Positions 1,018 to 16,479 of a DNA stretch of 64,000 nucleotides are shown in pieces. The position numbers and the translations under genes were made by a program. The stretch covers positions 70,188 to 134,187 of the forward strand of contig CAZBLH010000001.1 in NCBI GenBank assembly GCA_964492775.1. Direction: 5' to 3'. The notes below the pieces were generated by a model that did no database searches, was not told the origin of the DNA, and saw only the letters and a list, made by a program, of their open reading frames with translations. The DNA is from an uncultured Eubacteriales bacterium. GTDB taxonomy: Bacteria; Actinomycetota; Coriobacteriia; Anaerosomatales; PHET01. Each line of letters starts with the position of its first letter. The first letter of the stretch is position 1.

Positions 1018-2180
1018 TCGAGATTGACCGCTCGAGCTGGCGACGGGTGCGGTTCGGGGACGTTGTCTCCAACAGCAAGGAGGCCGTGAAAGACCCGGCA
1101 GCCTCAGGCTTGGACCGCGTGGTCGCCCTTGAGCACATGGATCCCGGCAACCTGCAACTGTCTGGATGGCAAGATGCCGCCGACGGCACAACCTTCACCC
1201 GCTGCTTCCGTGCAGGTCAGACGCTATTTGCGAAGCGTCGGGCGTATCAACGCAAGGTGGCCTACGCCCAGTTCGACGGCGTTTGTTCGGGCGACATCCT
1301 GGCGTTTGAGGCGAGGCCGGACGAACTGCTTCCGGAGCTGCTTCCATTCATCGTGCAGTCAGATGCATTCTTTGAACATGCGCTTCGCACGTCTGCAGGT
1401 TCGCTCTCTCCGCGCACCAAGTGGCAAGACCTAGCGAGGTGGGAGTTCGATCTGCCGCCACTTGAGCAACAGCGGCCGATGGCCGAGTTGCTGTGGTCGT
1501 TCAAGCGGGCGCTCGATGCCCAGCAGTCGAGACTCGAGGCTGTAGACACGACAATTGGTCGCTTCTGCGCTGATCTCTACTCAAGGAGTTCAGGGCTTGG
1601 TCTCGATCGTCCGATGCCAGACGTTGGCGACATCCGTATGGGCCGCCAGAAGGCGCCGAAGTACATGCGGGGCGTAACACCGCGTCCCTACCTCACTGTG
1701 CTCAGTGTGGGACACCTGGAACTGGACGTCCGCGATTTGCCGCAGATGGACTTCTCCGAGTCCGAGCTCCAGATCTATCGTGTGCTACCCGGCGACATCT
1801 TGCTAACCGAGGGCGACCTGATAAGTCCGCTGAATGTTGGGCGCCCCGTTCTGGTTGCGGACGACCTCCAGGACTGCTGCTTCCAGAACACTTTGATTCG
1901 GCTGCGTCTCAAGGACGACGTTCTTCCGCTCTTTGCCCTGGGGATGCTGGAGGGGATGCGACTTGGTGGGGTGTTCGCCTCGGCGGCGAGCACGACGACT
2001 GTGACCCATCTTGGGCTCAAGCGCTTCTCAGCTCTGAGAATGCCCGTTCCTGCACTCGAGCGGCAAGCAGGTGTTGCCAAGCAATTGGAGTGTCTCCTCG
2101 AGACGCGGAGAGCGTTGCGATCGAGCAGAGTAGCTCTTGAGGCGATGGCGGCTTCGGTTCGAGAGGAACTAATCGTATGA
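1014..2180 (+). CDS. hsdS: Type I restriction-modification specificity subunit S
   Basis: It sits between M and R with 4-nt overlaps on both sides. At 388 aa it fits a two-TRD protein. Two copies of the conserved HsdS spacer motif are present (FDLPPLEQQRPMAELL and MPVPALERQAGVAKQLE). Confidence 0.8.
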   Translation: MIEIDRSSWRRVRFGDVVSNSKEAVKDPAASGLDRVVALEHMDPGNLQLSGWQDAADGTTFTRCFRAGQTLFAKRRAYQRKVAYAQFDGVCSGDILAFEARPDELLPELLPFIVQSDAFFEHALRTSAGSLSPRTKWQDLARWEFDLPPLEQQRPMAELLWSFKRALDAQQSRLEAVDTTIGRFCADLYSRSSGLGLDRPMPDVGDIRMGRQKAPKYMRGVTPRPYLTVLSVGHLELDVRDLPQMDFSESELQIYRVLPGDILLTEGDLISPLNVGRPVLVADDLQDCCFQNTLIRLRLKDDVLPLFALGMLEGMRLGGVFASAASTTTVTHLGLKRFSALRMPVPALERQAGVAKQLECLLETRRALRSSRVALEAMAASVREELIV

Positions 2181-5095
2181 CCTTCAATGAAGCCAACTCC
2201 GTACGTGACTTCGTTCGCGACCGCGCCGTTGCTACTGGTTGGACCTTCGTTGCCGGGTCTGCAACACGCGACGATGACTCAGAGAGCATCGTTGCACGCA
2301 AAGTCCTTGACGCGCTCGTGCGGCTCAATCCCGAGATTGCCGCCGACTCCGCACTCGCCGACGAGGTGCTGCAGAAGCTCCAGGCAATCGCCATATCGGC
2401 TCGTCAAAGCGGCAACCTCCTCACCGCGAACGAGGAGTACCGTGCCTGGCTCGTCGGCGATCGATCGATGCCCTTTGGCCCCGGCGGGGAGCATGTTCCG
2501 ATTCGGCTCATCGATCTCGACGACCCGTACGCGAATGACCTGGTGGTCTCCACAGAAGTCACCTTCTCGCAAGGGGCGGTTACTCGGCGCTTCGACCTGG
2601 TCTTCTGGGTGAATGGCCTGCCGCTTGTCGTCGGTGAGGCCAAGACGCCAACACGACCCGCGTACTCGTGGGTGGACGCGGCCGCGCAGGTGCATGACGA
2701 CTACGAGAAGAACGTTCCGATGTTCTTCGTGCCTAACGTGCTGTCCTTCGGAACTGACGGCAAGGACTACCGGTACGGGTCGGTCGGAATGCCCATCGAC
2801 CTGTGGGGCCCCTGGCGCGAGGCTGACTCCAACCCGGCGCCATGCCTGGAAGCGGTCGGGGCGGCAGTCGATGCGATGCTTCGCCCGGAAGTGATCCTGG
2901 ACTTCCTGCGCTTCTTCGCCGTGTTCGCCACTGACAAGAAGCACCGCAAGATCAAGGTCATCGCACGCTACCAACAGTTCCAGGCGACCAACCAGATCGT
3001 CGACCGCGTCGTGGCCGGCCGCATCAAGAAGGGTCTCATCTGGCACTTCCAGGGGTCGGGCAAGTCACTGCTCATGGTCTTCGCAGCGAACAGGCTCCGC
3101 GCTCACCCGGCGCTGAAGTCCCCGACCGTCGTCATCGTGGTTGACCGAATCGACCTCGACACGCAGATCACTGCGACCTTCAACGCGACCGACGTGCCCA
3201 ACATGGTCTCGACCGATTCGCGCGAGGAACTCCATCAGCTTCTGCGACAAGGCACTCGCAAGGTAATCATCACGACGATTCACAAGTTCGCCGAGGCGGG
3301 CGGCGTTCTCGACGATCGCGACAACATCATCGTCATGGTCGACGAGGCGCACCGCACCCAAGAGGGCGACCTCGGTCATCAGATGCGCTCAGCACTGCCC
3401 AATGCGTTCCTTTTCGGCCTGACCGGTACACCCATTAACCGGGCCGACCGCAACACGTTCTGGGCCTTCGGCGCGGAAGAGGATGCCGGTGGCTACATGT
3501 CCAAGTACTCGTTCTCGGACTCGATCCGAGACGGGGCAACCCTACCGCTCCACTTCGAGCCGAGACTCGTCGAGCTTCGAGTAGACCGTGAGGCGTTGGA
3601 CGCCGGTTTCGAGGCACTCGCGGAGGGGCTCTCGGAGACCGAGCGGGCAGTGCTCGCCAAGAAGACCGGCGAGGCGAGCCGGCTTATCAAGGCGCGAGAG
3701 CGGGTCGCCGCGGTCGCCGCGGACATCGCCGCTCACTACAAGGCGAACGTCGAGCCCAACGGCTTCAAGGCCCAAGTCGTTGTCATAGACAAGGAAGCGT
3801 GTGTCCTCTACAAGAAGGCACTCGACGAGATTCTGCTGCCGGACGAGAGCGCGATCGTCATGTCGATGGACGCGCGCGACCCCCAGGAGTGGCGTGACAA
3901 ATACGGACTCGACAAGGACGCGGAGGCGCGGCTGCTCGATCACTACCGCGACCCCAACGATCCGCTCAAGGTCCTCGTCGTCACGGCGAAGCTGCTAACC
4001 GGCTTTGACGCGCCGATTCTGCAGGCGCAGTACCTGGACCGGCCGCTGCGCGACCATAACCTGCTGCAGGCGATCTGCCGTACCAACCGCCCTGCGCCCG
4101 GCAAGCCGTACGGCCTGGTAGTTGACTACCTCGGCATCTTCGATGACGTGGCACAGGCGCTCGAGTTCGATGACGAGTCGGTCAAGCGCGTGATCACCAA
4201 CCTCAACGAGGTCAAGGCGCAGCTCCCGGCCGCGATTAAGGGAGCACTCTCGTTCTTCCCAGGCGTGGACCGGACCATTGAAGGGCATGAGGGCCTCATG
4301 GCCGCGCAGCAGTGCCTCCCTGACGTTGAGATGCGCGACAAGTTCGCTGCCGCGTATACGTTCCTCGCTCGGCTGTGGGAGGCGCTGTCACCTGACCCGG
4401 TCCTCAACGAGTACCGCGACGACTACCGCTGGCTCTCCGACGTGTACGAGTCCGTGAAGCCCTTCGACCCGGCCGGCCGCCTGGTGTGGCACCGCCTCGG
4501 CCCGAAGACGCTCGAGCTTGTCAACGAGCATGTCCACGTTGATGTAGTACGCGAAGACTTGGACACCATCGAACTTGAGGCCGAACTGCTCGAGTCACTC
4601 GGCGATCTCATCGACGAGGCGGAGGCGAAGAAGAAGGCCAAGCACCTCGACATCCTGCTCGCCGCTCGTCTGGGTCGCCACAAGAACGACCCTCGGTTTG
4701 TCGCGATTGGTGAACGACTCGAGGCGCTTCGCGACAAGTTCTCGGCGGGCCTGATGAACAGCGTTGAGTTCCTGAAGTCCTTGCTCGAACTGGCCCAAGA
4801 AACAGTCGTCATCGAGAAGACGGTCGAGGCGCTGTCGAAAGAGGAGCAGGGCAAAGCCGCACTCAGCGCCCTGTTCGAGTCGATCCAGACTGAGGAGACT
4901 CCGGTCATCGTCGCCCGTGTGGTCGAGGACATCGACACCATCGTGCGGGAGGTCCGCTTCCCGGAGTGGCAGGCCACGTCAGCCGGCGAGCGCGAGGTCA
5001 AGAAGGCGCTGCGTCAGACACTGCTCCGCTACAAGTTGCACCGCGAGCAGGAGCTGTTCGATAAGGCGTACGGCTACATCCGGGAGTACTACTAG
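2177..5095 (+). CDS. hsdR: Type I restriction endonuclease subunit R (SF2 helicase/translocase-nuclease)
   Basis: 972 aa. Walker A FQGSGKSLLMVF, DEAH box MVDEAHRTQ, LTGTPI, and motif VI QAICRTNR. ATGA overlap with hsdS. Confidence 0.9.
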   Translation: MTFNEANSVRDFVRDRAVATGWTFVAGSATRDDDSESIVARKVLDALVRLNPEIAADSALADEVLQKLQAIAISARQSGNLLTANEEYRAWLVGDRSMPFGPGGEHVPIRLIDLDDPYANDLVVSTEVTFSQGAVTRRFDLVFWVNGLPLVVGEAKTPTRPAYSWVDAAAQVHDDYEKNVPMFFVPNVLSFGTDGKDYRYGSVGMPIDLWGPWREADSNPAPCLEAVGAAVDAMLRPEVILDFLRFFAVFATDKKHRKIKVIARYQQFQATNQIVDRVVAGRIKKGLIWHFQGSGKSLLMVFAANRLRAHPALKSPTVVIVVDRIDLDTQITATFNATDVPNMVSTDSREELHQLLRQGTRKVIITTIHKFAEAGGVLDDRDNIIVMVDEAHRTQEGDLGHQMRSALPNAFLFGLTGTPINRADRNTFWAFGAEEDAGGYMSKYSFSDSIRDGATLPLHFEPRLVELRVDREALDAGFEALAEGLSETERAVLAKKTGEASRLIKARERVAAVAADIAAHYKANVEPNGFKAQVVVIDKEACVLYKKALDEILLPDESAIVMSMDARDPQEWRDKYGLDKDAEARLLDHYRDPNDPLKVLVVTAKLLTGFDAPILQAQYLDRPLRDHNLLQAICRTNRPAPGKPYGLVVDYLGIFDDVAQALEFDDESVKRVITNLNEVKAQLPAAIKGALSFFPGVDRTIEGHEGLMAAQQCLPDVEMRDKFAAAYTFLARLWEALSPDPVLNEYRDDYRWLSDVYESVKPFDPAGRLVWHRLGPKTLELVNEHVHVDVVREDLDTIELEAELLESLGDLIDEAEAKKKAKHLDILLAARLGRHKNDPRFVAIGERLEALRDKFSAGLMNSVEFLKSLLELAQETVVIEKTVEALSKEEQGKAALSALFESIQTEETPVIVARVVEDIDTIVREVRFPEWQATSAGEREVKKALRQTLLRYKLHREQELFDKAYGYIREYY

Positions 5096-5100
5096 CAACC

Positions 5101-5138
5101 ACGCACGAACGTGAGAACCGGTTTCCACGTTCGTGCGT
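5101..5138 (+). terminator. Perfect 13-bp hairpin directly after hsdR (possible terminator or attenuator, no U-tract)
   Basis: ACGCACGAACGTG (5101-5113) pairs with CACGTTCGTGCGT (5126-5138) across a 12-nt near-palindromic loop, AGAACCGGTTTC. The hairpin ends 10 nt before the ATG at 5149. Confidence 0.4.
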
Positions 5139-5148
5139 AGATAGTGGG

Positions 5149-5985
5149 ATGGGGATTGCGTTGTCCAGCAAGCCAGCAGGCATACAGTACGCCGGCGAAG
5201 CAGGCCTTACTCTATCCTGCCAAGAGGCGGTGCTCCGTCTGCTGCAGTTTGGCGACAAGATCACGCACGCTCGCATCTTGACGTGCAATGGTGGCCACGG
5301 CCTTCTGCTCACGACGGACAAGCGTGAGACCGTCGGTATCAAGGCCGGATTTGCCTCAGGATACCCCGGGGAGGGGCCGCGCCGCTTCTCCTATGTCCTG
5401 CACGTACTCTGGCATCACGAGGTGGAGATCAGCCAGGCACAAGTGAGCCAAGGGATTCTCGACAGGTTGGACGCCTCAGCTCTCACGGAGGCCGACATGG
5501 AGACCATACGCCGAGCCAAGCCGGGCGATCACTGGAAGTACTACATGCTGCCGCAGCATGTCAGCGTGAGTCCTTGGTCGGAGTTCCCGCCGGCGATTCC
5601 GTACGCCATCGTTGACGAGCGCCTGGCTGACCTTGCTCTGACCTTCTGGGAGGCCCCAGGTGACCGGCTGCTCACGGCCTGGCGGCGTCTTGAAGATGCC
5701 GTGCGGAAGCGCACTGGTCTCGAGGAACACGGAGCCAAGCTCTTCTCGCGCGCTTTCGTCGGCGACGCCGCCCTGCTGCGGTGGGCTGACAAGGGCGCCG
5801 GTGAGGCGGAGGGCGCGGCACAGCTCTTCGCAAATGGATTCAAGGCGTACCGCAACCGGCGAGCGCATCGCGAAGTGAGCGACCATCCAGAAGACCAGCT
5901 CGTCGAGTTCCTGATGCTGAACCAGCTCTTCCGGCTGGAAGGGGCCTCTGAGCTCATCGCTGAGAAGTCGCAGGCGGGTGGATAG
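5149..5985 (+). CDS. HEPN-domain protein of the TIGR02391 / Hypoth_Ymh type with an unassigned ~130-aa N-terminal domain
   Basis: The C-terminal half reads IVDERLADLALTFWEAPGDRLLTAWRRLEDAVRKRTG...LFANGFKAYRNRRAHRE. This contains the R-x4-H HEPN motif in the context typical of TIGR02391. The N-terminal part (e.g. GFASGYPGEGPRRFSYVL) matches nothing I recognise. Confidence 0.65.
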   Translation: MGIALSSKPAGIQYAGEAGLTLSCQEAVLRLLQFGDKITHARILTCNGGHGLLLTTDKRETVGIKAGFASGYPGEGPRRFSYVLHVLWHHEVEISQAQVSQGILDRLDASALTEADMETIRRAKPGDHWKYYMLPQHVSVSPWSEFPPAIPYAIVDERLADLALTFWEAPGDRLLTAWRRLEDAVRKRTGLEEHGAKLFSRAFVGDAALLRWADKGAGEAEGAAQLFANGFKAYRNRRAHREVSDHPEDQLVEFLMLNQLFRLEGASELIAEKSQAGG

Positions 5986-7002
5986 ATGCCGGAGCAGACT
6001 AATCGAGTCGTTACTGAGAATGCCGAGGAAGAACAGTGGCGCCTGCTTACAAGGCTGGCGTATCCACGGAATATCAGGGCGTATCGCGACGGCCACGCGG
6101 AGGCGCCTCTACAGGCAGAGGGCGAGGAGTACGTATCCGGGTGTCTTCACCAGGCGCAAGCGTACTTCGAGTCGGCGGCCGTCGCTCCGATCGACATCAG
6201 CCCACTGCTGCTCTACTACGGGGCCGTCAGTCTGTTCGGGGCTGCAACTGCGCTCGGTACTGGTGTTGTGCCGGCGATACAGTCGCATGGGATGCAGCTT
6301 GACCAGGTCGACGCCGCGCAACAGATTGGCCAGGTCAGCGTGAAGACCTCATCTTCGCTTTCGGGTGGTCTGGGTGCGTTCGCCAAGTACTTCGGCGATG
6401 ACTGTCGTCTTGGCGGAGTGGACACCTGGAGTCTCCAAGAACTGATGGCGTCTGTGCCAGATCTCAAACTTGATGCTCAACTCTGCTATGGAGCCGACGC
6501 GTCTTTCGTTCTTCCGGTTGAGACGGTCCGGTCTGGAGAGCGCTCCGCGGAGCGGATCGCACTCGAGGATTTTGGCGGCAGACCAGTTGATGAAGTCGTA
6601 GGAAGAATCGCCGGATTCACGAAGGCATACTTGCCGCCGCAGTTCTCGAACAAGAACGAATGGGTTGTGCTGCATCGACGGATTGGCTCCCAGCCCATAG
6701 GAATCAGGTCGCTTTCGGGGCAGCGGTATCTGCAGCTCTCACACCTAAAGGGAGGGCAGCAAGTCAGTCCGCGAATCGAGACGCTGATGTTCATGGGGCT
6801 GTTCGTGCTTGGCTCAGTTTCCCGATATCACCCAAGTCTGTGGAACCCGTTTGTCCGCAGCGATCAGACCGGAGAGTTGTTGATCGTTGAGCGGTTCCTG
6901 TCTGTGTGCCGCAGGATGCTGCCCAATCTGGTCTTGGACGCAATTCATGACGAGAGGTTCATCTTCGTTCGTCCGTCCGCGGGAGGTGAGGGTAACGACT
7001 GA
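5986..7002 (+). CDS. YaaC-like family protein (function unknown)
   Basis: The ATG at 5986 directly abuts the TAG of the previous gene (TAGATG). Signatures resemble PF14175: QAQAYFESAA, ISPLLLYYGAVSLFGAA, HGMQL, and the C-terminal SVSRYHPSLWNPFVR...ERFLSVCRRMLPNLVL. Confidence 0.55.
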   Translation: MPEQTNRVVTENAEEEQWRLLTRLAYPRNIRAYRDGHAEAPLQAEGEEYVSGCLHQAQAYFESAAVAPIDISPLLLYYGAVSLFGAATALGTGVVPAIQSHGMQLDQVDAAQQIGQVSVKTSSSLSGGLGAFAKYFGDDCRLGGVDTWSLQELMASVPDLKLDAQLCYGADASFVLPVETVRSGERSAERIALEDFGGRPVDEVVGRIAGFTKAYLPPQFSNKNEWVVLHRRIGSQPIGIRSLSGQRYLQLSHLKGGQQVSPRIETLMFMGLFVLGSVSRYHPSLWNPFVRSDQTGELLIVERFLSVCRRMLPNLVLDAIHDERFIFVRPSAGGEGND

Positions 7003-8011
7003 ACGTCTACGAGCCGTCGCGTACTCGGCGTGCAAGTTGGTCAGGGATTGGGAGGGAAGAGGCGAGTTCGGTGAAGTCATTAGGAGCCTCACAGTCTCCA
7101 CGGGTCAGCCGATGTCGCCGAATGACCGGAGTATGTTCGGCTACGTGGCCCGCCAGCAGCACGCGCAAGTGGCCGGGTATCTGGCGACCGACCAGTACCG
7201 CGACAGACTGGCAGGCCAGCCTTTTGGACCGCCACCACCACTGGTTGAGCACGAACGAAAGTTGCTTGCTGGGGTGCACGCGGAGTTCCTCCGGCTGAAC
7301 GACACATGCATCGATCGGGTATTTGCGGCGGGGCACTCCGCGAGGGCGATTCTCGACCCTTACAACTCTCTCGCACCCGTGTCGGTCGCAGAAGCGGCCC
7401 CAGTAGCGATGTTCAATGAAGAGACCGTGCACCTAGTCGCTGACGCATTCGAGCTCCATCCGGGGCTTGCAGTCGTGCGGGGGCTGAACGTACCAGACGG
7501 CGCCGAAGACGCCGAGCGGATGCTTGAGGCAACCCACGTACTCGAACGACACCTCCAGCAGGCGGGCCCGCTGGAGACTCCCGACGACATCTTCCGCGTC
7601 ATGGTCGAGCGCGATACGCCGCAGCAGCAGATGATGAAGGTGGTCGCCGCATTCATGAACCTGCGAGCGGCTTTGGGCGTGCTCGACCAGCTGGTATATC
7701 AGGCGATGCTCAGAGATAGACTGCCGGCCCTCAGTCCGGACAACACGATCGCAGTAGACAAAGCGGTGCACCACGCCGCCGGTGGCGGATGGCAGCTGCT
7801 CTGCCTTCATGACGAGGCGACGGCGCACATGGAGTGTGGTGGTCTTGCGCTGCTGTCCGGTCTGCCGGGCGTAGTGGACACGTCTCAACTGGCGTCGATA
7901 TCTCGGATTACGACGAGTATGGGAGGGGAGATCGGGCCGACCCTTGAACTAGAACTACGGGAAATCGATGAGAACCTCTCGCCATACGGAGGCCTGCTGT
8001 CTCGAGCATGA
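6986..8011 (+). CDS. Hypothetical protein, no recognisable domain (start uncertain: ORF opens at 6887, GTG at 6986, ATG at 7112)
   Basis: Long ORF in the sense direction that overlaps the stop of the YaaC-like gene. Third-position GC bias is consistent with coding, but rare codons (AGA, AGG, ATA, CTA) are used. There are no motifs I can assign. Confidence 0.5.
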   Translation: MRVTTERLRAVAYSACKLVRDWEGRGEFGEVIRSLTVSTGQPMSPNDRSMFGYVARQQHAQVAGYLATDQYRDRLAGQPFGPPPPLVEHERKLLAGVHAEFLRLNDTCIDRVFAAGHSARAILDPYNSLAPVSVAEAAPVAMFNEETVHLVADAFELHPGLAVVRGLNVPDGAEDAERMLEATHVLERHLQQAGPLETPDDIFRVMVERDTPQQQMMKVVAAFMNLRAALGVLDQLVYQAMLRDRLPALSPDNTIAVDKAVHHAAGGGWQLLCLHDEATAHMECGGLALLSGLPGVVDTSQLASISRITTSMGGEIGPTLELELREIDENLSPYGGLLSRA

Positions 8012-8065
8012 GCACGGGCGCGCGTGAGCCATCGATCTGGTCGCCGTACCGGGTTCCACACGAGT

Positions 8066-8096
8066 AGGTACGTATCCACGTATCCACGTAGTACCT
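8066..8096. promoter_or_regulatory. Operator-like element: a 6-bp inverted repeat enclosing a tandem octamer repeat
   Basis: AGGTAC (8066-8071) and GTACCT (8091-8096) flank GTATCCAC GTATCCAC GTA. It lies ~80 nt upstream of the ATG at 8176, which has a GAGGAGG RBS, in the 164-nt gap after the cassette. Confidence 0.35.
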
Positions 8097-8175
8097 GCGA
8101 CGGAGATCGGCACGAACGGCACGCATTCACCTCCTCGCGGCTACGCTGTGAGTAGTCGATTCGAGGAGGCATCTC

Positions 8176-9396
8176 ATGGCCCGCAAGCCGTTGAACCCGC
8201 GGCAGGTCGAAGTGCTGCAGTGGATTGCCGACGGATGTCCCGATCGCACATGGCCGGACTTCACGTACAAACATACCGCGGTGGCCTTGCGGGGCCGACG
8301 ACTGGCGAAGGTGTCGAAGCGCGGCGGATGGCACGCCGAGATCACCGAGGACGGACGGCACTACCTGGAGCATGGTTGCTATCCCGGGGAGCAGGCCCAT
8401 GCGGCGCACTCAGCGAAAGCGCAGCAGGCGCCCAATAAGGCGCCCAGGCAGGCGATGAAGCCCGATGCCGCCCCGAGACCCAAGAAGAAGAGCGAGCCGC
8501 CAGAGGGGCGGGAGACCGCAGCGCCACCTATCGTCGTTCCCTCGCAACTGCGCAATCCGCATCCGGCGGTTGCTGCGCTTCGCGATGACAAGGAGCACCT
8601 CGGCTTGACTGCGAGCGTGAGGGGGCGGGCGCTGCGTGTGCTGCAGGCGCTTACGACCGCAGCCGAGGAGCAAGGCTGGAGCGTGCGTGCTCCGGAAGTC
8701 CAGCGGCGAAACGAATACGGCTACTCACGTTCTGAGTCAGCGAACCACCTCATCATCGAGACTGGTGAACAGAGCGTGGGCCTTCGCATCGTCCAGCTAG
8801 CCGACCGCAGTCCCCACGTGCCGACGAAAGAAGAGCTGCGCCGGCAAGAGAGCTGGGGCAACGTACCGTCGAAGTACGATCACACGCCCAATGACTACCT
8901 GCGCATCGAACTCGAGCGTTGGGGCTGGGATGGCAAGCAGAACAACTTCAGCGAGGGCCAAAGGGGCCCGATCGATCGGAAGTTGCGCCGCGTCATCGAC
9001 GAGATTGCCCACAGAAGCGAACGGGCCAAAGAGAGGCGACTCGAGCAAGAGGTTCGCGAGGCTGAGCGTGCGCGTCAGTACGAGCAGGCGCTCCAGCGAG
9101 CGAAGCTGCTCTTGCAGCAAGACCATCGAGCGAAGGTACTGCTCGAGCAAATCAGCCGCTCGACGCAGGCTGCGCAGATACGTGAGTACGTGAAAACCAT
9201 GAGGGCGTCAGCCGACGTGCTCGAGGGCGAGGAGAAGACTGCCGCCCAGGAGTGGATCGACTGGGCCGTCCGCTACGCCGACGTGATCGACCCGCTCAGG
9301 CGAGAGCTCAGGATGCCCGAGGACCCCGAGCCGACGGAGGAGGCGCTTCGACCCTTCATGGGCGGCTGGAATGCGTACGGCCCGCGAGGTTGGTAG
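8176..9396 (+). CDS. Hypothetical protein: possible N-terminal wHTH, a Pro/Ala/Lys-rich linker, a central globular region and a C-terminal coiled coil
   Basis: The N-terminus reads RQVEVLQWIADGCPD...HTAVALRGRRLAKVSKRGGWHAEITEDGRHYLEHG. The linker is QAPNKAPRQAMKPDAAPRPKKKSEPPEG. A heptad-like charged stretch follows: RSERAKERRLEQEVREAERARQYEQALQRAKLLLQQDHRAKVLLEQI. Good RBS. I recognise no family. Confidence 0.55.
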   Translation: MARKPLNPRQVEVLQWIADGCPDRTWPDFTYKHTAVALRGRRLAKVSKRGGWHAEITEDGRHYLEHGCYPGEQAHAAHSAKAQQAPNKAPRQAMKPDAAPRPKKKSEPPEGRETAAPPIVVPSQLRNPHPAVAALRDDKEHLGLTASVRGRALRVLQALTTAAEEQGWSVRAPEVQRRNEYGYSRSESANHLIIETGEQSVGLRIVQLADRSPHVPTKEELRRQESWGNVPSKYDHTPNDYLRIELERWGWDGKQNNFSEGQRGPIDRKLRRVIDEIAHRSERAKERRLEQEVREAERARQYEQALQRAKLLLQQDHRAKVLLEQISRSTQAAQIREYVKTMRASADVLEGEEKTAAQEWIDWAVRYADVIDPLRRELRMPEDPEPTEEALRPFMGGWNAYGPRGW

Positions 9397-9528: not shown

Positions 9529-11358
9529 TTGCACATTACTAAGCTCCGCATTCGCAATTTCCGCTCACTGCACGATCTGACGCTTGCCATGTCGCCGTTC
9601 ACCGTTCTGTGCGGGCCCAATAGCGCCGGTAAGTCGAACGTGCTCAGGGCGATCGAGTTCGCGTGGCGACCGGAGGACGAGATCACGCCACAGCAGGTCT
9701 ACGCCAACCTTGACTACCGGAAGCGTGATCAGCGAGGCGGCCCTACCTTGGCGATTCGCGTGGAGATTGACTTCGCCTCTTGCCCCACTGAGCTCTGCTC
9801 CCAGTACGGCGGAGTTGATGGGTCTTTGAAGTATGAGTTCAGCGCTACGCGCAAGACCGCGACCGTGAACCGAAAATTCAACGGACACCCCGTCGATCAG
9901 CCTTCGTTCGAGCGTGCGAAAGAGTGCTTTGACATCGTCTATGTGCCGCCAATACGAGACATTTCCGCGGAGGGGCTGAAACCGTTTAGGCGGCTGTTGG
10001 CAAAGGCCGCCGCCAGGGCGCGCGGAGACCACTCTATGCGGCGTGTTGCAGAGACCGCCAGGAAAGTGATTCGGCAGCAAGCGGAAGTACTCCTCAAGAA
10101 CGGGGGCTTCGCGGCAGACCGTCTTGGCGCTGACGGACTACGTGCCGGAACCGACCGAATCGAACTCGACAACCTATTCGATGATCTGTCGCTTGAAGTC
10201 ATGTTCGGGGATCGCAGCGTTGAGCTGGAGGCCGTCGGAACGGGGCACCAGAGCGAAGTCGTGCTCAGCATGTATCGGCAGCTTGGAGAGGCAGCGCCTG
10301 GAGACACTGTCTACCTGTTCGAGGAGCCAGATAACCACCTTCATCCGAGTCTGATACGCGCGGTGGCTGATGACCTCATTCGGCTCTCGAGGAGCGATCA
10401 GGTCATCGCAACCTCACATTCTCCGGTTCTCTTGAATCACGTCGGGTATGGCTCGATACGGGCGTTGAAGACCAATGCCGAGCGAGAGACAGAGCCGCGC
10501 AATATGCAGGTGGCGCTGAGTGAGCCCCAGGTGCGTGCCCTGATGGCCACGCTTGGGGTCCGCGCCACCGAGCCGCTGCTTTCGCAGAAGGTAATTGTGG
10601 TCGAAGGGCCTTCCGATGCGGTGGCGATCAGTGAGCTGCACCGCCTGCGAACCGGAAGAACCCCAGACCAGTGCGACATTCTCGTGATGCCGGCGGGTGG
10701 CAAGGACATGCTGGTTAAGTTGTGCTCGCTGTTGCAGGGGCTCGACGTCGACTGGTACGCAGTGGTGGACAACGATGCCGCGGACTGCGGATATCCACCG
10801 GTGTTGACTGAAGCAGCCGCAACTCTCGACGAAGCTACACGAGGAAGCCTCGCCTCGCTACGCGCAGTCATCGACGACGGCACCAGGCGGGCACGAAGAG
10901 CGGGCAAATTGATCGACTCCCTTATTGACGAGCTCAACGGCGCACCGCCTTCAGTTGTTCGCTACGACGGCTCGCACATCGAAAGTCTCGTTACGGTAGC
11001 GGGGATCCTTATGCCCGCCGAACGAAACCAGCTGGCGACAAGACTGAAAAAGGGCGAACTCCGTCTTCCCCGGACGTTACTCAAGAAATCTCGTGTCTTT
11101 CTCTGTGAATCCACTCTGGAGGAATCCTTGGTCCGTAATCCGGGTGCCGTTAACGTTGTCGAGGCTGTCTTGCTGAAGCACCAGCAACAGCCAATCGGTG
11201 GCAACGATGCGGAATCAAGGAGACGTCTAGCGAGCCAGCGCCTGCATACGAAGGCGGGCGAGCCGGAAGTAGTGCGCCAGGCCGTTGAGGCGCTGGAAGA
11301 GGCGGGCCTGCTTGGCTACACCGACTTGAACTTGAGCTTCAAGTACCTGTTCGAATAG
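9529..11358 (+). CDS. OLD-family nuclease (ABC-type ATPase domain fused to a C-terminal Toprim domain)
   Basis: TTG start. Walker A LCGPNSAGKSNVLRAIEF, Walker B VYLFEEPDNHLHPSL, H-loop VIATSHSPVLL. Toprim glutamate in KVIVVEGPSDAVAISEL, then ILVMPAGGKD, and DxD in YAVVDNDAAD. 609 aa, the size of class 1/2 OLD proteins. Confidence 0.8.
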   Translation: MHITKLRIRNFRSLHDLTLAMSPFTVLCGPNSAGKSNVLRAIEFAWRPEDEITPQQVYANLDYRKRDQRGGPTLAIRVEIDFASCPTELCSQYGGVDGSLKYEFSATRKTATVNRKFNGHPVDQPSFERAKECFDIVYVPPIRDISAEGLKPFRRLLAKAAARARGDHSMRRVAETARKVIRQQAEVLLKNGGFAADRLGADGLRAGTDRIELDNLFDDLSLEVMFGDRSVELEAVGTGHQSEVVLSMYRQLGEAAPGDTVYLFEEPDNHLHPSLIRAVADDLIRLSRSDQVIATSHSPVLLNHVGYGSIRALKTNAERETEPRNMQVALSEPQVRALMATLGVRATEPLLSQKVIVVEGPSDAVAISELHRLRTGRTPDQCDILVMPAGGKDMLVKLCSLLQGLDVDWYAVVDNDAADCGYPPVLTEAAATLDEATRGSLASLRAVIDDGTRRARRAGKLIDSLIDELNGAPPSVVRYDGSHIESLVTVAGILMPAERNQLATRLKKGELRLPRTLLKKSRVFLCESTLEESLVRNPGAVNVVEAVLLKHQQQPIGGNDAESRRRLASQRLHTKAGEPEVVRQAVEALEEAGLLGYTDLNLSFKYLFE

Positions 11359-11411
11359 ACCAGAGCCACTATCGAAAGGTCGGCTCAGCGGACGTGAATC
11401 CGTACCGATGT

Positions 11412-11479
11412 AATCCCCCTCGAAAACCGTTTACCGGGCAACCCCCGGTACGAGGGTTCGAATCCCTCCCTCTCCGCCA
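11412..11479 (+). pseudogene. 3' half of a tRNA-Ser(CGA) (anticodon loop to CCA) with no 5' acceptor strand; putative att site or island boundary
   Basis: Anticodon loop CTCGAAA, a long 6-bp variable arm (ACCGGG/CCCGGT), T-arm GAGGG-TTCGAAT-CCCTC, acceptor 3' strand CCTCTCC, then G and CCA. The required GGAGAGG 5' strand is absent within 130 nt upstream. Confidence 0.6.
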
Positions 11480-11490
11480 GAAGGACATGA

Positions 11491-11528
11491 AGAGAGCCCG
11501 TCACTGGTGTGGCGGGCTCTCTGTTTCT
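11491..11528. terminator. Rho-independent-type terminator shared by the tRNA fragment / OLD gene (+) and the MFS gene (-)
   Basis: AGAGAGCCCG (11491-11500) pairs with CGGGCTCTCT (11513-11522), followed by GTTTCT. Confidence 0.6.
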
Positions 11529-11544
11529 ACTCATGCTGGTGCGA

Positions 11545-12879
11545 TCAGGCTTCGCTTGTCGCTGCCTCACCATCGACTGCCGCTTCTGCTGACGGCGCCA
11601 TCGCTGAGTCCAGTGCCCGTATCGCAGGCACAAGGAGGGCCACGACGGCGCACGCAACGAGAAGGACGCCTGTCAGCGCAAACCACGTCGCGACACCCGT
11701 GCGCTCAGCAAGGGGGCCCGCCAACAGGAGCCCGATCGGTGCGACAAGCATCGACAAGGTCATGTAGAGCGACATTACGCGCCCGAGCTTAGCCGGGTCG
11801 ATCAGCGTCTGGAACATCGCGGTGATCGGGGCACCGAACAAAGGCGCCGAGAATCCCATCCCTGTGCTGAGCGCTGCGAACGCCCAGAACGCCGTGACGG
11901 GAAGCAGGCCGGACAACCCGACCATCACGCCTATCAGCAGGAGCCCGGAGCTGATGAGCCGGACGCCGGAAGTCCGCGAGGATAGCCATCCGATAGCGAG
12001 GGATCCGGCGAGCATGCCTGCGCCGAATGCCAGCTCGACAACGCTGGCCTGCAGCGCTCCACCGCCGAAGTGCGCTTTCGTCATGAGAGGGAAGAGCGCG
12101 TTGATCGGCATGTAGAGCAGAGTGACGACCACGAGCACGAAGGTAAGGTCGAGCAGCCCGCGGTTCCTCGCGAGCTCACGCCAACCAGTCATGAACTCGG
12201 CGACGAGGCTGGATCCGGCAGGGTCGTTCTCTGCGCGCTCGGGATTGGGGATGCGCACGAGCATCAGCAGTGCGACGGCAATGAGGGCGCCGGCTATGTC
12301 GAGCGCGATGACGGTCTGCATCGGTGCGACTCCCATGAGAAATGCACCGAGCACGGGAGCCACCATCGCCACGCCGGAACCCAGGAAGAAGTTCCAGCCT
12401 GCGACCCGCATGAGCTGGTCGGCTGGGACGTACATGGGGACTGCGGCTTGGCTGGCCGGAGTATGGAACGCAGCGCCCACCGACCGCGCGGCGATGACCG
12501 CGATGATGAAGGCGACCGACGGCTCGCCAGCCGCGAAGGCGCCGATCAGGACCATGCTCGTTGCGGCTACGAAGAGGTCGGCGCCGATGATCGTCCATCG
12601 GCGATCCCAGCGGTCGACCAAGGGGCCGGCGATGGGACCCAGGAGCGCTTGCGGCAGCAGTGCCGCGATCGAGGCGTACGCGAGGATGGTCGCCGAGCCC
12701 GTCTCGGCCGTCAGCCACCAGACGAGGGCGAAGTTGATTGCGGAGCTGCCGAGCAGCGAGAATGCCTGGCCGATGAACACGATAAGGAACGTTCGAAGCC
12801 AAGGGTGAGTCTTCAGAGTCACTGGATCTCCAGTCTGCAGGTACGAGTAGGCGGGCCCCCGTAGGGGCATGTGCGCCAC
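11545..12879 (-). CDS. MFS transporter (MFS_3 / enterobactin-exporter-like efflux family)
   Basis: 444 aa and polytopic. It has WLRTFLIVFIGQAFSLLGS and GPLVDRWDRR motifs. It is a paralogue of 38239-39591. Confidence 0.8.
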   Translation of the reverse strand: MAHMPLRGPAYSYLQTGDPVTLKTHPWLRTFLIVFIGQAFSLLGSSAINFALVWWLTAETGSATILAYASIAALLPQALLGPIAGPLVDRWDRRWTIIGADLFVAATSMVLIGAFAAGEPSVAFIIAVIAARSVGAAFHTPASQAAVPMYVPADQLMRVAGWNFFLGSGVAMVAPVLGAFLMGVAPMQTVIALDIAGALIAVALLMLVRIPNPERAENDPAGSSLVAEFMTGWRELARNRGLLDLTFVLVVVTLLYMPINALFPLMTKAHFGGGALQASVVELAFGAGMLAGSLAIGWLSSRTSGVRLISSGLLLIGVMVGLSGLLPVTAFWAFAALSTGMGFSAPLFGAPITAMFQTLIDPAKLGRVMSLYMTLSMLVAPIGLLLAGPLAERTGVATWFALTGVLLVACAVVALLVPAIRALDSAMAPSAEAAVDGEAATSEA

Positions 12880-13010
12880 GGCCTCGCGATGCGAGGCGGG
12901 CTGCTCGTACTAGCGGATCCGGATGTAGAAGCGCACGGTATGTACTCCTGAGAGCGGCGACGAGGGAATGATAGCATCCGCCGGGCCAACTCCAGGGTGG
13001 CCAGAGCAGC

Positions 13011-13078
13011 AATCCGCCTCGAAAACCGTTTGTCCGGTTACCCCGGGCACGAGGGTTCGAATCCCTCCCCCTCCGCCA
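13011..13078 (+). pseudogene. Second, diverged 3' half of a tRNA-Ser(CGA); also lacks a 5' acceptor strand
   Basis: Same 68-nt layout as 11412-11479, about 59/68 identical by hand alignment. The variable-arm stem is kept through compensatory changes (GTCCGG/CCGGGC versus ACCGGG/CCCGGT). The acceptor 3' strand is CCCCTCC, and no GGAGGGG is found upstream. Confidence 0.6.
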
Positions 13079-13091
13079 GTTAGCTGGAAAG

Positions 13092-13139
13092 ACGTGGCCC
13101 CGGTCACCCGAACGGGAGGCCGGGGCCACGTTCGTGTTT
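13092..13139 (+). terminator. Strong hairpin terminator after the second tRNA fragment
   Basis: ACGTGGCCCCGG (13092-13103) pairs perfectly with CCGGGGCCACGT (13120-13131), followed by TCGTGTTTG. Confidence 0.6.
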
Positions 13140-13343
13140 GGCGGACAGCAGTCGCTCTGCGTGCCGCGCCGCGATCAGCCTCGCCGGACTCGGCACCCGA
13201 AATCGTCTTCATCAGCGCCGCACCGGTCTCCCCCAGTGAGTGAGTTGACAAACACTACGTGCCGCGATATAACGTAAACCGATATAGCGCGAAGCGGTGT
13301 AACGCCGCGCGAGCATCGGAAGACAGGACGGAGGCGAGGGCGC

Positions 13344-13670
13344 GTGGAAGAGAACGGACGTCCGCTAACCGAGACCGTGTACTACGTTCTGCTTTCGCTC
13401 GTGGACCAGCGGCACGGCTACGGGATCATGCAGTTCGTCCGGGACATGACCGATGGCCGGGTTGTTCTCGGCGCTGGAACGCTGTACGGAGCGCTCTCCA
13501 CCCTGCAGGGCAAGGGTTGGATCGAGCCAGCGGGGGCTGACACGGGTGATCGGAAGAAGGAGTACAGGATCACGTCTCAGGGGCGCGATGTGCTCGCATC
13601 TGAGCTCAGTCGGCTCGAGCGCCTCGTCGGCGATGGCCGAGCGATGCTGGGGAAGGAGGCTGCATCATGA
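13344..13670 (+). CDS. PadR-family transcriptional regulator
   Basis: YYVLLSLVDQRHGYGIMQFV...GTLYGALSTLQGKGWIE...KKEYRITSQGRDVL. 108 aa. Confidence 0.85.
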   Translation: MEENGRPLTETVYYVLLSLVDQRHGYGIMQFVRDMTDGRVVLGAGTLYGALSTLQGKGWIEPAGADTGDRKKEYRITSQGRDVLASELSRLERLVGDGRAMLGKEAAS

Positions 13671-14215
13671 GCGAGCGAGTCGTGCGGAAGATGTACCTGG
13701 ACTTTGAGAAGGAGGAGCGGTGGCTGAACCACATGGCCGCCGAGGGTTGGGAGTTGGTCCGCCACACATGGTGCCGCTACGTCTTTGAAAAGGGTGTGCC
13801 CGGCCGCTATGTGTACCGGATCCAGCTACTGCCGGACCCGGCTTCTGCGCCGGAGAGCCACGAGTACCTGGGCTTCCTTGAGGAGGCCGGTGTTGAAGTG
13901 GTCGACACATACCAACGCTGGGTCTACGTCCGCAAGTCCGCTGACGGTCAGCCATTCGAGCTGTTCAGCGACGGTCAATCCAGGCTGGCCCACCACAAGC
14001 GTGTCGCCGGAGTCTTCGCTGCCATCGCCGCCGCGCAGCTGCCCCTCATGGCCGCCAATGCGACCAACGTGGCGACTAGCATCCGGGAGCGCGCCTACTT
14101 CCCCCTGCCACTCTTCGTCGTGCACGTGGCGCTCGTCGCGGTGCTCGTGGCAGTCGCGTTGCGACAGCTTGCGGCGGTGCGGCGCCTGGAGCAGGAAGCG
14201 GTGGTTCACGAGTAG
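13667..14215 (+). CDS. DUF2812-like membrane protein (usual PadR partner)
   Basis: ATGA overlap with padR. EKEERWLNHMAAEGWELV motif and two C-terminal TM segments. Confidence 0.6.
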   Translation: MSERVVRKMYLDFEKEERWLNHMAAEGWELVRHTWCRYVFEKGVPGRYVYRIQLLPDPASAPESHEYLGFLEEAGVEVVDTYQRWVYVRKSADGQPFELFSDGQSRLAHHKRVAGVFAAIAAAQLPLMAANATNVATSIRERAYFPLPLFVVHVALVAVLVAVALRQLAAVRRLEQEAVVHE

Positions 14216-14346
14216 AGCTTCGCGCTGAAGCCACGTCGTGCGGCGGATTGGGTCGGCGTTTGTCGGGACGCAGCAGGCTCCCTCCGAGCCCCGTGATGTA
14301 TCCTGCTGACGCGGGCGACTGCTCTCGTCGATCAGGAGTATCGGGC

Positions 14347-16479
14347 GTGCTCCAGCGAATGACCATCATCGGGCTCACGGCAGCCCTGCTCGGCTCGACG
14401 CTTGCGCCTGCGCCAGCCGCGGTGCGCTCGGCTCAGGCCGAGTCCCGCATCGAGACAGCCCAGCGCATCGCCGACGAGAAGCTCGCGCTCACCGACGCGA
14501 CCGTCCCGGTCGGCAGGTATCCGTTCTATACGAGCGGGCCGAGCGACTGGAAGCTCGATGGCGGCACCGGTTGGGTCTACGGCTTCCTGCCAGGCAGCTT
14601 GTGGTACCGGTACGAGCGCGTCGGCGATGAGGCGGCGCGGGCCTCGGCAATCCGTCGGCAGCTCACGCTCGCGCCGAACGCGCGCACGACGCGCAATCAC
14701 GACATCGGCTTCATGTTCCTCACGAGCTACGGCAACGGCTATCGGCTCACCGGCGACCCGCAGATGCGCCAGACGTTGCTCACGGCTGCCGACTCGCTCT
14801 CCGAACGCTACGACTCCCGCGTCGGCATGGTTCGCACCACCAACACGCCGAACGACTTCTGGGTCTACAACGACACGATGATGAACATCGAGCTGCTGTT
14901 CTGGGGAGCGCGGAACGGCGGCGACCCCAAATGGCGCTCGGCGGCCTCCTCACATGCGCTGCGGACCGCCGAGGACTTCCTGCGCCCCGGCGGCGGCAGC
15001 TACCACTACGTCGCGTACAGCGAGACCACCGGTCGGCCGCTGCGCAAGGGGCAGGGCCAGGGCTACGCCGACGAAAGCACCTGGTCGCGCGGACAGGCTT
15101 GGATCATCTACGGCATGACGGTCGCCTATCGCGAGACAGGCGACGCGCGCTTCCTCACTGCTGCCCGCCGAGCGACTGAGTACTGGATCGCGAACGTTCC
15201 CGAGGACTTCGTGCCCTACTGGGACTTCAACGCGCCGAACATCCCCGATGAGCCCCGTGACAGCTCGGCAGCAGCGGTCGTTGCCTCAGCGTGCCTCGAA
15301 CTCGCCGAGCTCGACCCTGACCGGGCGTGGCGGACGACCTACCGCGACCTCGCCGAATCCACCCTCCAGAGCCTGAGCTCCTCGGCCTATCTCGCCGACG
15401 CCGATCCGCTGCCGGCGGTTCTTAGGCACGGCACGCACGCCAAGATGCTCGGCGCTTACGACCACGGGACCTCCTGGGGCGACTACTACTTCCGCGAGGC
15501 GCTCATGCGCCTGACAACGCCGGTCGAGCGCGTGGGCGGTCCGGATCGCTACCACACGTCGGCGCGCACGAGCTCAGCCGCGTTCGACTCGGCCGATGTG
15601 GCCGTGGTCGCGAGCGGGGAGGGCTTCGCCGATGCGCTGGCAGCGAGCGCTCTGGCTGGCTCGCTCGACGCTCCCGTGTTGCTCACCGGCCGAGCGAGCG
15701 TCCCGGGGCCGATTCGCTCCGAGATCGTGCGCCTTGGTGTTCGCCGAGTGATCGTTGTCGGCGGCACGAACGCCGTTTCGGCGCAGGCCGAATCCGAGCT
15801 GGCGGGGCTCCCCGGCATCGAGCGTGTGGAGCGCATCGCCGGGCAGGACCGCTACTCCACAGCTGCGAGCATCGCCGAGCAGTCCGCCGAGTCCGGCGTC
15901 CCGCTTCTCTTCATCGCGCGAGGCGACGAGTTCGCAGACGCGCTCGCGGCTGGGCCTGTCGCCTACGCTCAGGGCGCACCCGTCCTGCTCACCACCGGAA
16001 GCGCACTCCATCCTGACGCCGAGGCAGCGCTTCGGGCGCTACGTCCCGGTCGGGTCGTCGTGCTCGGCGGCAAGAGCTCTATCTCCGCCGCTGTGGAGGA
16101 CAGAGTCCGTCAAGTCATGACCGAGAAGACCTCACTGGAGCCCCGGACCACGGCGCCTGACAGCACCAGGATCGGAGGCACTGATCGCTACGACACTGCG
16201 GCCCTAGTCGCGCAGTGGGCGGATGTGGAGGGCTATGCCAACTTGAGCCACATCGCTGTGGTGTCCGGAGGCGCGTTCCCTGATGCCCTCGGGGCTGCGG
16301 CTGCTGTCGGAAGTCAAGGCGGCGTGCTGCTGATGAGCGCTCGCGACAAGCTCGCGGTGCCGACTTGGGGCGCGCTGGGGTCGGCGGCGGCAGAAGGCGA
16401 GCCTCGCGTGACCGTGTACGGCGGCGAGAGTGTCGTTTCCGGCCGAGTGGCACATGAGATCTTCGTCCGCGTCCGGTGA
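14347..16479 (+). CDS. Secreted glycoside hydrolase family 88-like enzyme with three C-terminal cell-wall-binding repeat 2 (CWB2) modules
   Basis: GTG at 14347 is preceded by AGGAG, and a signal peptide follows (MTIIGLTAALLGSTLAPAPAAVRSAQA). GH88-like motifs NHDIGFMF and TWSRGQAWIIYGM. Three repeats of the form G.DRY.T...ADAL...PVLLT. Confidence 0.7.
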   Translation: MLQRMTIIGLTAALLGSTLAPAPAAVRSAQAESRIETAQRIADEKLALTDATVPVGRYPFYTSGPSDWKLDGGTGWVYGFLPGSLWYRYERVGDEAARASAIRRQLTLAPNARTTRNHDIGFMFLTSYGNGYRLTGDPQMRQTLLTAADSLSERYDSRVGMVRTTNTPNDFWVYNDTMMNIELLFWGARNGGDPKWRSAASSHALRTAEDFLRPGGGSYHYVAYSETTGRPLRKGQGQGYADESTWSRGQAWIIYGMTVAYRETGDARFLTAARRATEYWIANVPEDFVPYWDFNAPNIPDEPRDSSAAAVVASACLELAELDPDRAWRTTYRDLAESTLQSLSSSAYLADADPLPAVLRHGTHAKMLGAYDHGTSWGDYYFREALMRLTTPVERVGGPDRYHTSARTSSAAFDSADVAVVASGEGFADALAASALAGSLDAPVLLTGRASVPGPIRSEIVRLGVRRVIVVGGTNAVSAQAESELAGLPGIERVERIAGQDRYSTAASIAEQSAESGVPLLFIARGDEFADALAAGPVAYAQGAPVLLTTGSALHPDAEAALRALRPGRVVVLGGKSSISAAVEDRVRQVMTEKTSLEPRTTAPDSTRIGGTDRYDTAALVAQWADVEGYANLSHIAVVSGGAFPDALGAAAAVGSQGGVLLMSARDKLAVPTWGALGSAAAEGEPRVTVYGGESVVSGRVAHEIFVRVR

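Follow-up and report, generated by a model that had tools for sequence, protein, structure and literature searches.

We analyzed a stretch of 64,000 nucleotides (positions 70,188 to 134,187 of contig CAZBLH010000001.1, assembly GCA_964492775.1), hereafter called the window, from an uncultured Eubacteriales bacterium that GTDB places in the Coriobacteriia, and we focused on three genes, g1, g2 and g3, that lie behind its type I restriction-modification (R-M) operon. A sequence-only reading of this DNA had proposed that the three form one defense cassette made of a HEPN gene, a YaaC-like gene and an orphan. We find that the conserved unit is the pair formed by the YaaC gene g2 and its partner g3, not the set of HEPN, YaaC and orphan genes, and that the HEPN gene g1 belongs with hsdR.

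The first 11.4 kb of the window form a single run of + strand genes, from hsdM to an OLD-family gene, g5. hsdM (73-1017; Pfam N6_Mtase, 1.6e-71), whose 5' end is cut by the window edge, encodes the methyltransferase. It is followed by the specificity gene hsdS (1014-2180; Methylase_S) and by the restriction gene hsdR (2177-5095; 972 aa; HSDR_N, SWI2_SNF2, ResIII and T1R_D3-like). The Pfam domains of HsdM, HsdS and HsdR thus occur in one same-strand cluster, as is required of a type I system, and the members of the hsdR protein cluster are named type I R subunit and originate from metagenome-assembled genomes of Coriobacteriia/Actinobacteria. Behind hsdR come a stem-loop (5101-5138), g1 (5149-5985), g2 (5986-7002), g3 (6986-8011) and a spacer 3' of g3 (8012-8175), all on the + strand, so that the arrangement of hsdMSR followed by three same-strand genes is as first described. 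So are the two junctions: the TAG of g1 (5983-5985) abuts the ATG of g2 (5986), and the GTG of g3 (6986) opens inside g2, giving a 17-nt overlap up to the g2 stop codon (7000-7002).

The product of g2 (338 aa) matched the Pfam YaaC model (PF14175) with 91.7 bits against a cutoff of 27 (E 7.7e-26), over model positions 36-307 of 307, and all 46 aligned relatives matched the model as well. In the alignment of this subfamily (A1), 19 columns were invariant in the 46 sequences. The motifs SPLLLYYG and SRYHPSLWNPF were the most conserved, and the invariant polar residues were N29, Q56, H101, S156, R280, E297 and R310. Both the profile match and the motif conservation therefore bear out the assignment of g2 to YaaC, for which SPLLLYYG had been named as a signature. 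The AlphaFold2 (AF2) model of g2 had a mean predicted local distance difference test score (pLDDT) of 93.6 and a predicted template modeling score (pTM) of 0.93; judged by its secondary-structure elements, the protein appears to have a helical core (residues 44-92 and 264-321) and an alpha/beta insert (93-263). Foldseek searches with this model gave no match in the PDB (best E 0.38) or in BFVD (best E 0.21), profile searches of PDB sequences gave no match either, and no HEPN family matched any of the 46 YaaC proteins at E<=5. A full-text literature search returned no paper on YaaC, its matches being acronyms or sequence motifs such as RYYYAAC, and no paper on the YaaC/g3 pair was found in the searchable literature.

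g3 had been described as matching nothing. That statement holds for Pfam, NCBIfam, PADLOC and PHROGs, none of which matched the protein, and it does not hold for protein sequences at large. A word-indexed protein search gave 3 relatives only, and a profile scan of 1.84 billion representatives recovered a family of 377 clusters at E<=1e-3, 301 of them at E<=1e-10, with clusters defined at 50% identity. Nearly all of the g3-family clusters listed encode proteins of 330-370 aa; those that are shorter appear to be fragments, and no fusion was seen among the clusters listed. These 377 clusters, together with the g3 homologs found next to YaaC in 25 loci (see below), rule out that g3 is an orphan. 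Gene callers place its start at ATG 6947 in the window and in relatives of at least 90% identity. We rejected this start in favor of GTG 6986, which matches the first in-frame start of the L001 open reading frame (ORF; L001 9992, locus numbers of this type denoting the relatives compared with the window) and lies within a few residues of the position at which g3 homologs start.

The AF2 model of g3 was of moderate quality (pLDDT 65.8, with the C-terminal 95 residues below 50). It predicts a helical region (1-245) followed by a low-confidence, beta C-terminal region. Foldseek gave no PDB match for g3, which is weak evidence given the moderate model, and profile searches of PDB sequences gave none either. 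Across 185 family members the best-kept positions were P125-Y126 (95-99%), G317 (99%), C108 (88%), H98 (86%) and C16/K17 (81-82%). The E90-R91-x6-H98 stretch was considered as a HEPN site and discarded, R91 being kept in only 65% of the 185 members against 86% for H98. The broader idea that YaaC or g3 might be hidden HEPN domains also found no support, as hhalign comparisons with g1 were negative and Foldseek gave no PDB match. Profile comparisons showed g1, g2 and g3 to be unrelated to one another, and searches of YaaC and g3 turned up no nuclease, NADase or pore-like domain. We also observed that five Firmicute members of the g3 family (L008-L012) carry a C-terminal SEC-C zinc-binding motif (CPCGSGLKYKFCCGK), which the g3 of the window lacks.

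The distribution of the pair was determined by a scan of one genome per species with the YaaC alignment A1 as the query, which yielded 30 loci. A g3 homolog was the next same-strand ORF after YaaC in all 25 loci that had a complete YaaC gene and room downstream. These downstream ORFs (329-400 aa) align over their full length (alignment A2), with phmmer E values from 7e-40 to 5.5e-6 and stronger ones for L001 and L002. Outside the 25 were YaaC genes at contig ends (L006, L030), YaaC fragments (L029, L031, L033) and distant YaaC genes (L034, L035; 20-23% identity to g2), the last having no g3-family partner. Three further YaaC proteins encoded on long contigs all had a partner of 339-356 aa directly downstream, without a Pfam match, that matched the g3 profile at about 1e-68. 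Conversely, YaaC lay directly upstream of all three g3-family genes that were looked up, with a 4-nt overlap. Overlaps of 4 nt between YaaC and g3 were seen in L002, L007, L015, L024, L039, L041 and L046-L050, and elsewhere the two genes are separated by 0-63 nt. The YaaC subfamily paired with g3 shows 29% identity or more to g2, and g3 is the obligate downstream partner of this subfamily. Throughout, g3 is more diverged than YaaC (83/91, 53/62, 29/43 and about 20/31% identity for g3/YaaC).

Among the hosts of the pair are Chloroflexi, Acidobacteria, many Clostridia and Actinobacteria. Granulicatella, Anaerococcus, Peptostreptococcus and Lachnoanaerobaculum carry pairs (L016-L020) whose proteins are 97-99% identical, and such near identity across four Firmicute genera points to recent transfer between genera on a mobile element. 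Some of these copies adjoin guaA, next to which mobile elements are often integrated, and TnpV adjoins the pair in other Firmicute loci (L011-L013, L028). A tblastn search with g2 gave no match in the phage or plasmid collections, and YaaC was absent from the 2.9 million viral contigs of IMG/VR.

The HEPN gene has a different distribution. Residues 175-258 of g1 matched Hypoth_Ymh (PF09509) with 43.4 bits (cutoff 25, E 3.6e-11), and its R-x4-H catalytic motif, RNRRAH (5851-5868, residues 235-240), is identical in L001 and reads RNRRSH in the 50%-identical relative of L037. Against TIGR02391 (hypoth_ymh in NCBIfam), g1 scored 30.7 bits (E 2.7e-7), under the curated cutoff of 39.45. The protein is related to TIGR02391, but NCBI's rule would not assign that name, so that the earlier assignment to a TIGR02391/Hypoth_Ymh-type HEPN domain stands for PF09509 and for the motif and falls short for TIGR02391. 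The N-terminal ~150-160 aa gave no match in Pfam even at E<=10 and none in NCBIfam, PADLOC or PHROGs, upholding the description of this domain as unassigned. The annotated ATG (5149) is ACG in L001 and L036, and TTG 5161 is kept in all three sequences and is therefore probably the true start. The 50%-identical relative in L037 (767-1560) keeps the N-terminal motif (GFASGYLGEGPRTF) as well as RNRRSH. It contains frameshifts and an in-frame stop and has no YaaC gene after it on its short contig; either the copy is decaying or the assembly is at fault.

g1 starts 54-66 nt past the hsdR stop codon on the same strand, and this linkage is kept in L051, L043 and L044. The 76-nt stretch 5090-5165 folds at -29.9 kcal/mol (z = -3.5) and holds the stem-loop 5101-5138, with a 13-16-bp stem, and, across the start region of g1, another small hairpin. 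The stem-loop is kept in L001 and L036 (alignment A5), with one compensatory change from C-G to T-A and one U.G pair that can form only in RNA of the + strand. No T-run (U-tract) follows it; it may act as a terminator, an attenuator or a stabilizer for the downstream genes. With the hairpin in place, a promoter would not fit ahead of g1, and transcription of the gene probably begins with the hsd operon or within the final ~60 nt of hsdR.

These same ~60 nt have traveled with the hairpin and g1 into other R-M contexts. In L001 and L036, the block is located behind a different, Eco57I-type R-M gene, and about 60 nt of hsdR 3' end matching window positions 5040-5095 are found there, at about 8080-8140 of L001 and about 690-740 of L036. 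They encode the last HsdR residues (…KAYGYIREYY) even behind the unrelated Eco57I-type gene. The retention of this remnant and of the hairpin in L001 and L036 indicates that linkage to hsdR is ancestral for g1. Judged by these alignments, the remnant is a recombination scar, and g1 came from an hsdR-linked site.

All three genes are present in L043, which is identical to the window, in L044, which is 97% identical at the DNA level, and in L001, where identity to the window is 92% for g1, 91% for g2 and 83% for g3; in L045, g1 and g2 are followed by the start of g3. Contigs of 26,029, 14,872 and 7,849 bp likewise hold cluster members of the three genes together. Among more than 30 pair loci, none outside the lineage of the window (L001, L043-L045) has a Ymh gene, and among 109 neighbors of the pair a g1 relative was found only in L001. 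The three genes thus do co-occur in other genomes of a narrow lineage, in which the block recurs; elsewhere the pair usually occurs without Ymh.

The reverse situation is found in L051, in which the R-M genes and g1 are present without the pair. Compared with the window, its hsdM is 88% identical, its hsdR 93% and its g1 88% (residues 1-268 in tblastn); only the N-terminal half of hsdS is conserved, at 79% identity. After g1 (10950-16041), L051 has a gene of 423 aa and then a SIR2_2 gene of 1242 aa, and no YaaC or g3. The 423-aa gene, which has no family, and the SIR2_2 gene possibly represent another uncharacterized defense pair. The DNA of the window and that of L051 are homologous up to window position 5945, some 40 nt short of the g1 stop codon, and the 125-nt spacer that follows g1 in L051 (10826-10950) is homologous, from the stop codon on, to the spacer 3' of g3 in the window (8012-8175; alignment A6), which marks the right edge of the g2-g3 insert. 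This comparison indicates that the window carries a discrete insert of ~2 kb consisting of the g1 tail and g2-g3. The spacer, in which we noted a tandem GTATCCAC GTATCCAC, may be a shared promoter/operator, or else a hotspot of recombination beside a slot whose cargo varies.

Substitution rates also differ along the block. Synonymous divergence (dS) between the window and L001 was 0.25 for g1 and 0.69 and 0.63 for g2 and g3, which makes the block a mosaic. DNA identity to L001 was 94-97% over most of the g1 body, with 88-90% in three 100-nt windows, and fell to 76-90% from about 5870 onward. The ratio of nonsynonymous to synonymous divergence (dN/dS) against L001 was 0.16 for g1, 0.06 for g2 and 0.15 for g3, and all three genes are under purifying selection.

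We then considered what lies around the pair in other genomes. Immediately before the pair, and on its strand, R-M genes are present in the window, L001, L002, L018 and L046/47, the last with EcoRI_methylase and GmrSD_N/HNH genes. In L016, hsdM lies downstream of the pair, and Eco57I and N6 methylases are also among the neighbors. Other neighbors were AIPR, an AAA_15 ATPase with a 229-aa partner, Cas1, PemK, an APH/TCAD9 kinase and DUF5677, a family reported to be enriched on recombinase-associated defense contigs (PMC12632615). Mobile-element neighbors comprise integrases, TnpV, MobA/MobL and Mob_Pre. What lies upstream of the pair varies: no gene, an XRE-type helix-turn-helix gene, TnpV, DUF5677 (L007), or an unknown 440-aa gene (L039/L040). 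In L039 (1693-8086) and L040, we observed a Hen1 methyltransferase gene and a Pnkp gene (RNA repair) directly upstream of the 440-aa gene, whose stop codon overlaps the start of YaaC. That the pair is found with RNA-repair genes may point to an activity directed at RNA. A link to MADS was examined and rejected: the "mad2" matches among the neighbors are ordinary methyltransferases, MAD2 being treated as R-M-like by the MADS authors themselves, and the NCBIfam MADS models miss g1-g4.

Downstream of the spacer in the window, two more genes complete the same-strand run, and a terminator-like hairpin (11491-11522, + strand; 14-bp stem with 9 G-C pairs and a T-rich tail) closes it. g4 (8176-9396, +; 406 aa) is a neighbor of the cassette and not part of it, and it had no match in Pfam, NCBIfam, PADLOC or PHROGs. 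Its DNA homology to L003, L004 and L044 ends abruptly at 8366-8372, so that only the first ~65-72 residues are shared (82% with L044 and about 49% overall with L003 and L004); the N-terminal region of g4 is conserved, and the C-terminal parts are swapped between relatives. g5 (9529-11358, +) is a neighboring defense gene that encodes an OLD-family ATPase-Toprim nuclease (Pfam AAA_15, AAA_21 and OLD-like_TOPRIM). It resembles class 1 Old and the GajA protein of Gabija in its ATPase and Toprim domains, its best PADLOC model being Old at 1.9e-38, and it also weakly matches ATPase models of the MAD3/PtuA/AriA type. It differs from Gabija in that no GajB-like helicase is adjacent; its sole candidate partner is the upstream gene g4, which has no family.

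G+C content was 0.57-0.65 in the first 11.4 kb versus 0.64-0.71 from 14 kb onward. G+C at third codon positions (GC3) was 0.66-0.69 for g2 and g3, compared with about 0.80-0.85 for most other genes, and the AGA, AGG, ATA and CTA codons reached 32-37 per 1000 in g2 and g3 versus about 10-15 in most other genes. The bias of g1 was mild (GC3 0.75, 14 rare codons per 1000), and hsdS (GC3 0.69), g4 and g5 shared the bias of g2 and g3. The rare codons that had been attributed to the whole cassette are thus a property of g2 and g3, only weakly of g1, and they extend to hsdS, g4 and g5. The trio was probably acquired horizontally. No sigma-70-type promoter for the cassette was found between 4800 and 11600 in a scan that omits actinobacterial promoter types.

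Several known systems resemble parts of this locus. Among HEPN families, Ymh has been described as occurring "in operon with R-M" (Anantharaman et al. 2013, PMC3710099), so the statement that HEPN modules are recruited to R-M loci was already in print for Ymh itself. g1 conforms to this description in scoring above the PF09509 gathering threshold, in its R-x4-H motif and in its position on the same strand directly after hsdR, and it differs in its N terminus, which is not one of the paraMORC, AbiJ-NTD1 or AbiTii fusions reported there. The same section on R-M-linked HEPN domains discusses the fail-safe model of PrrC and RloC (PMC3710099). Like PrrC in EcoprrI, g1 encodes a predicted HEPN RNase and is in physical linkage with a type I hsd locus. 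However, it has no N-terminal ABC-type ATPase domain (no Pfam match), its position is behind hsdR and not within the hsd cluster, and it belongs to another HEPN family.

For the pair, the closest named protein is YaaC of Bacillus subtilis, the namesake of PF14175, of which g2 covers nearly the full model. The yaaC gene of that species, which we take to be a solitary gene next to guaB, and the distant YaaC genes (L034, L035) differ from the g2 subfamily in that the latter always has a g3-family partner. With HEPN-MNT, AbiE and PD-Lambda-3, the pair shares the organization of two translationally coupled genes, sporadic distribution, carriage on mobile elements and R-M neighbors, but neither of its proteins is homologous to theirs. 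Both proteins, at about 340 aa, are large for classical type II toxin-antitoxin pairs. PADLOC-DB v2.0.0 gave no match for g2 or g3 at E<=0.01, in agreement with the earlier statement that no named system could be recognized, and the only PADLOC matches of g1 were Aga_HEPN (8.4e-4) and PD-Lambda-3_B (1.2e-3). We regard the pair as a new candidate two-gene conflict module.

In the explanation that we favor, and to which we give an even chance, a defense-island slot behind the type I R-M operon holds two separable modules in series. The first would consist of hsdR, the hairpin and g1, a Ymh-family HEPN protein with an intact R-x4-H motif. By analogy with PrrC and RloC, g1 may be a latent RNase serving as a back-up to restriction: when the R-M complex is disabled, the g1 RNase would stop translation. 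Its RNase activity and any anti-phage role are proposed on that analogy. The second module would be g2-g3, an autonomous two-gene unit made of YaaC and its partner of an unnamed family. The overlapping or close stop-start signals across phyla suggest that YaaC and g3 are made together, and they may form a complex. Within such a complex, YaaC, which is strongly conserved and has invariant polar residues, would be the likelier catalytic or core subunit, and g3, which evolves faster, the likelier specificity, sensor or regulatory subunit. In this lineage, the second module would have inserted exactly between g1 and the next spacer, giving rise to the TAG-ATG junction. Regulation of the HEPN protein by YaaC/g3 is not required, since the pair exists alone. 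We further propose, tentatively, that the pair is a hitherto undescribed, autonomous anti-phage or anti-mobile-element system of two proteins without a known fold, spread by integrative and conjugative elements (ICEs) and transposons across at least four phyla.

A number of observations weigh against this explanation. L001 keeps the perfect TAG-ATG junction, and the final ~40-115 nt of g1 seem to move together with the pair, so a functional link between g1 and the pair could exist in this lineage. Neither YaaC nor g3 shows a recognizable catalytic fold in the PDB, BFVD and profile searches. The distant YaaC of Bacillales is solitary (L035), which makes a role outside defense possible, and at several loci (L038, L032) the pair is surrounded by ordinary chromosomal genes. 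Our survey of neighborhoods is descriptive and makes no statistical comparison with the genome background.

The integrated system envisaged by the sequence-only reading, in which the HEPN RNase is the effector and YaaC and g3 sense infection or neutralize the RNase until triggered, is compatible with the abutment of g1 and g2 and the overlap of g2 and g3 in L001, with the movement of the trio as a block between two R-M contexts and its recurrence on several metagenomic contigs, and with the 3' end of g1, which shares the divergence level of g2-g3 and not that of the g1 body. The varying upstream genes elsewhere (DUF5677 in L007, the 440-aa gene in L039/L040) would also fit a variable effector combined with a constant pair. 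However, most pair loci have no effector-like gene upstream, the pair being alone in L038, L041, L032 and L048-L050. Moreover, L051 retains g1 with hsdR and has no pair, dS against L001 differs between g1 and g2-g3, and the profile comparisons reveal no relation among the three proteins. We therefore regard one integrated system as unlikely: the trio does recur as a block beside R-M genes, but the pair exists alone and g1 exists without the pair.

It is also unlikely, in our view, that the pair has no immune role and is found here only as cargo collected by the slot. It might then serve mobile-element maintenance or addiction, act in anti-defense, or have a cellular role like that of the solitary YaaC of Bacillales. 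Its carriage by transposon- or ICE-like elements (TnpV, MobA, Mob_Pre, integrases), the loci among housekeeping genes, the solitary distant YaaC genes, the lack of PADLOC matches and the lack of a nuclease, NADase or pore-like domain in either protein can all be read in this way. Against this, the pair immediately follows R-M genes of the same strand in no fewer than five independent contexts, the equivalent slot of L051 holds a SIR2_2 gene, and OLD and HEPN genes are neighbors of the pair in the window. The absence of YaaC from the 2.9 million viral contigs and from phage and plasmid records argues against a phage anti-defense gene. As for a fortuitous adjacency, or ORFs that are decaying remnants without current function, the in-frame stop and frameshifts of the g1 relative in L037 and the truncated YaaC matches (L029-L031, L033) are the kind of evidence that would be expected. 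Either is nevertheless very improbable for this locus, given the low dN/dS of all three genes, the intact ORFs in every close relative, the pairing in 25 of 25 loci across phyla and the confident YaaC model.

A new gene pair in a defense island is a common class of finding, and the HEPN gene after hsdR is an ordinary arrangement that has already been described; what is new is the pairing of YaaC with g3. A family without a known function is thereby tied to a two-gene unit that can be tested. On one and the same hsdR-Ymh backbone, the window has YaaC/g3 and an OLD nuclease and L051 has a SIR2_2 gene, which defines a variable defense slot between conserved flanks where further cargo could be sought. 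If the pair is indeed an autonomous defense system, the locus would represent a layered array in which restriction is followed by an RNase fail-safe and then by the YaaC system, and defense would be the first function assigned to the YaaC family.

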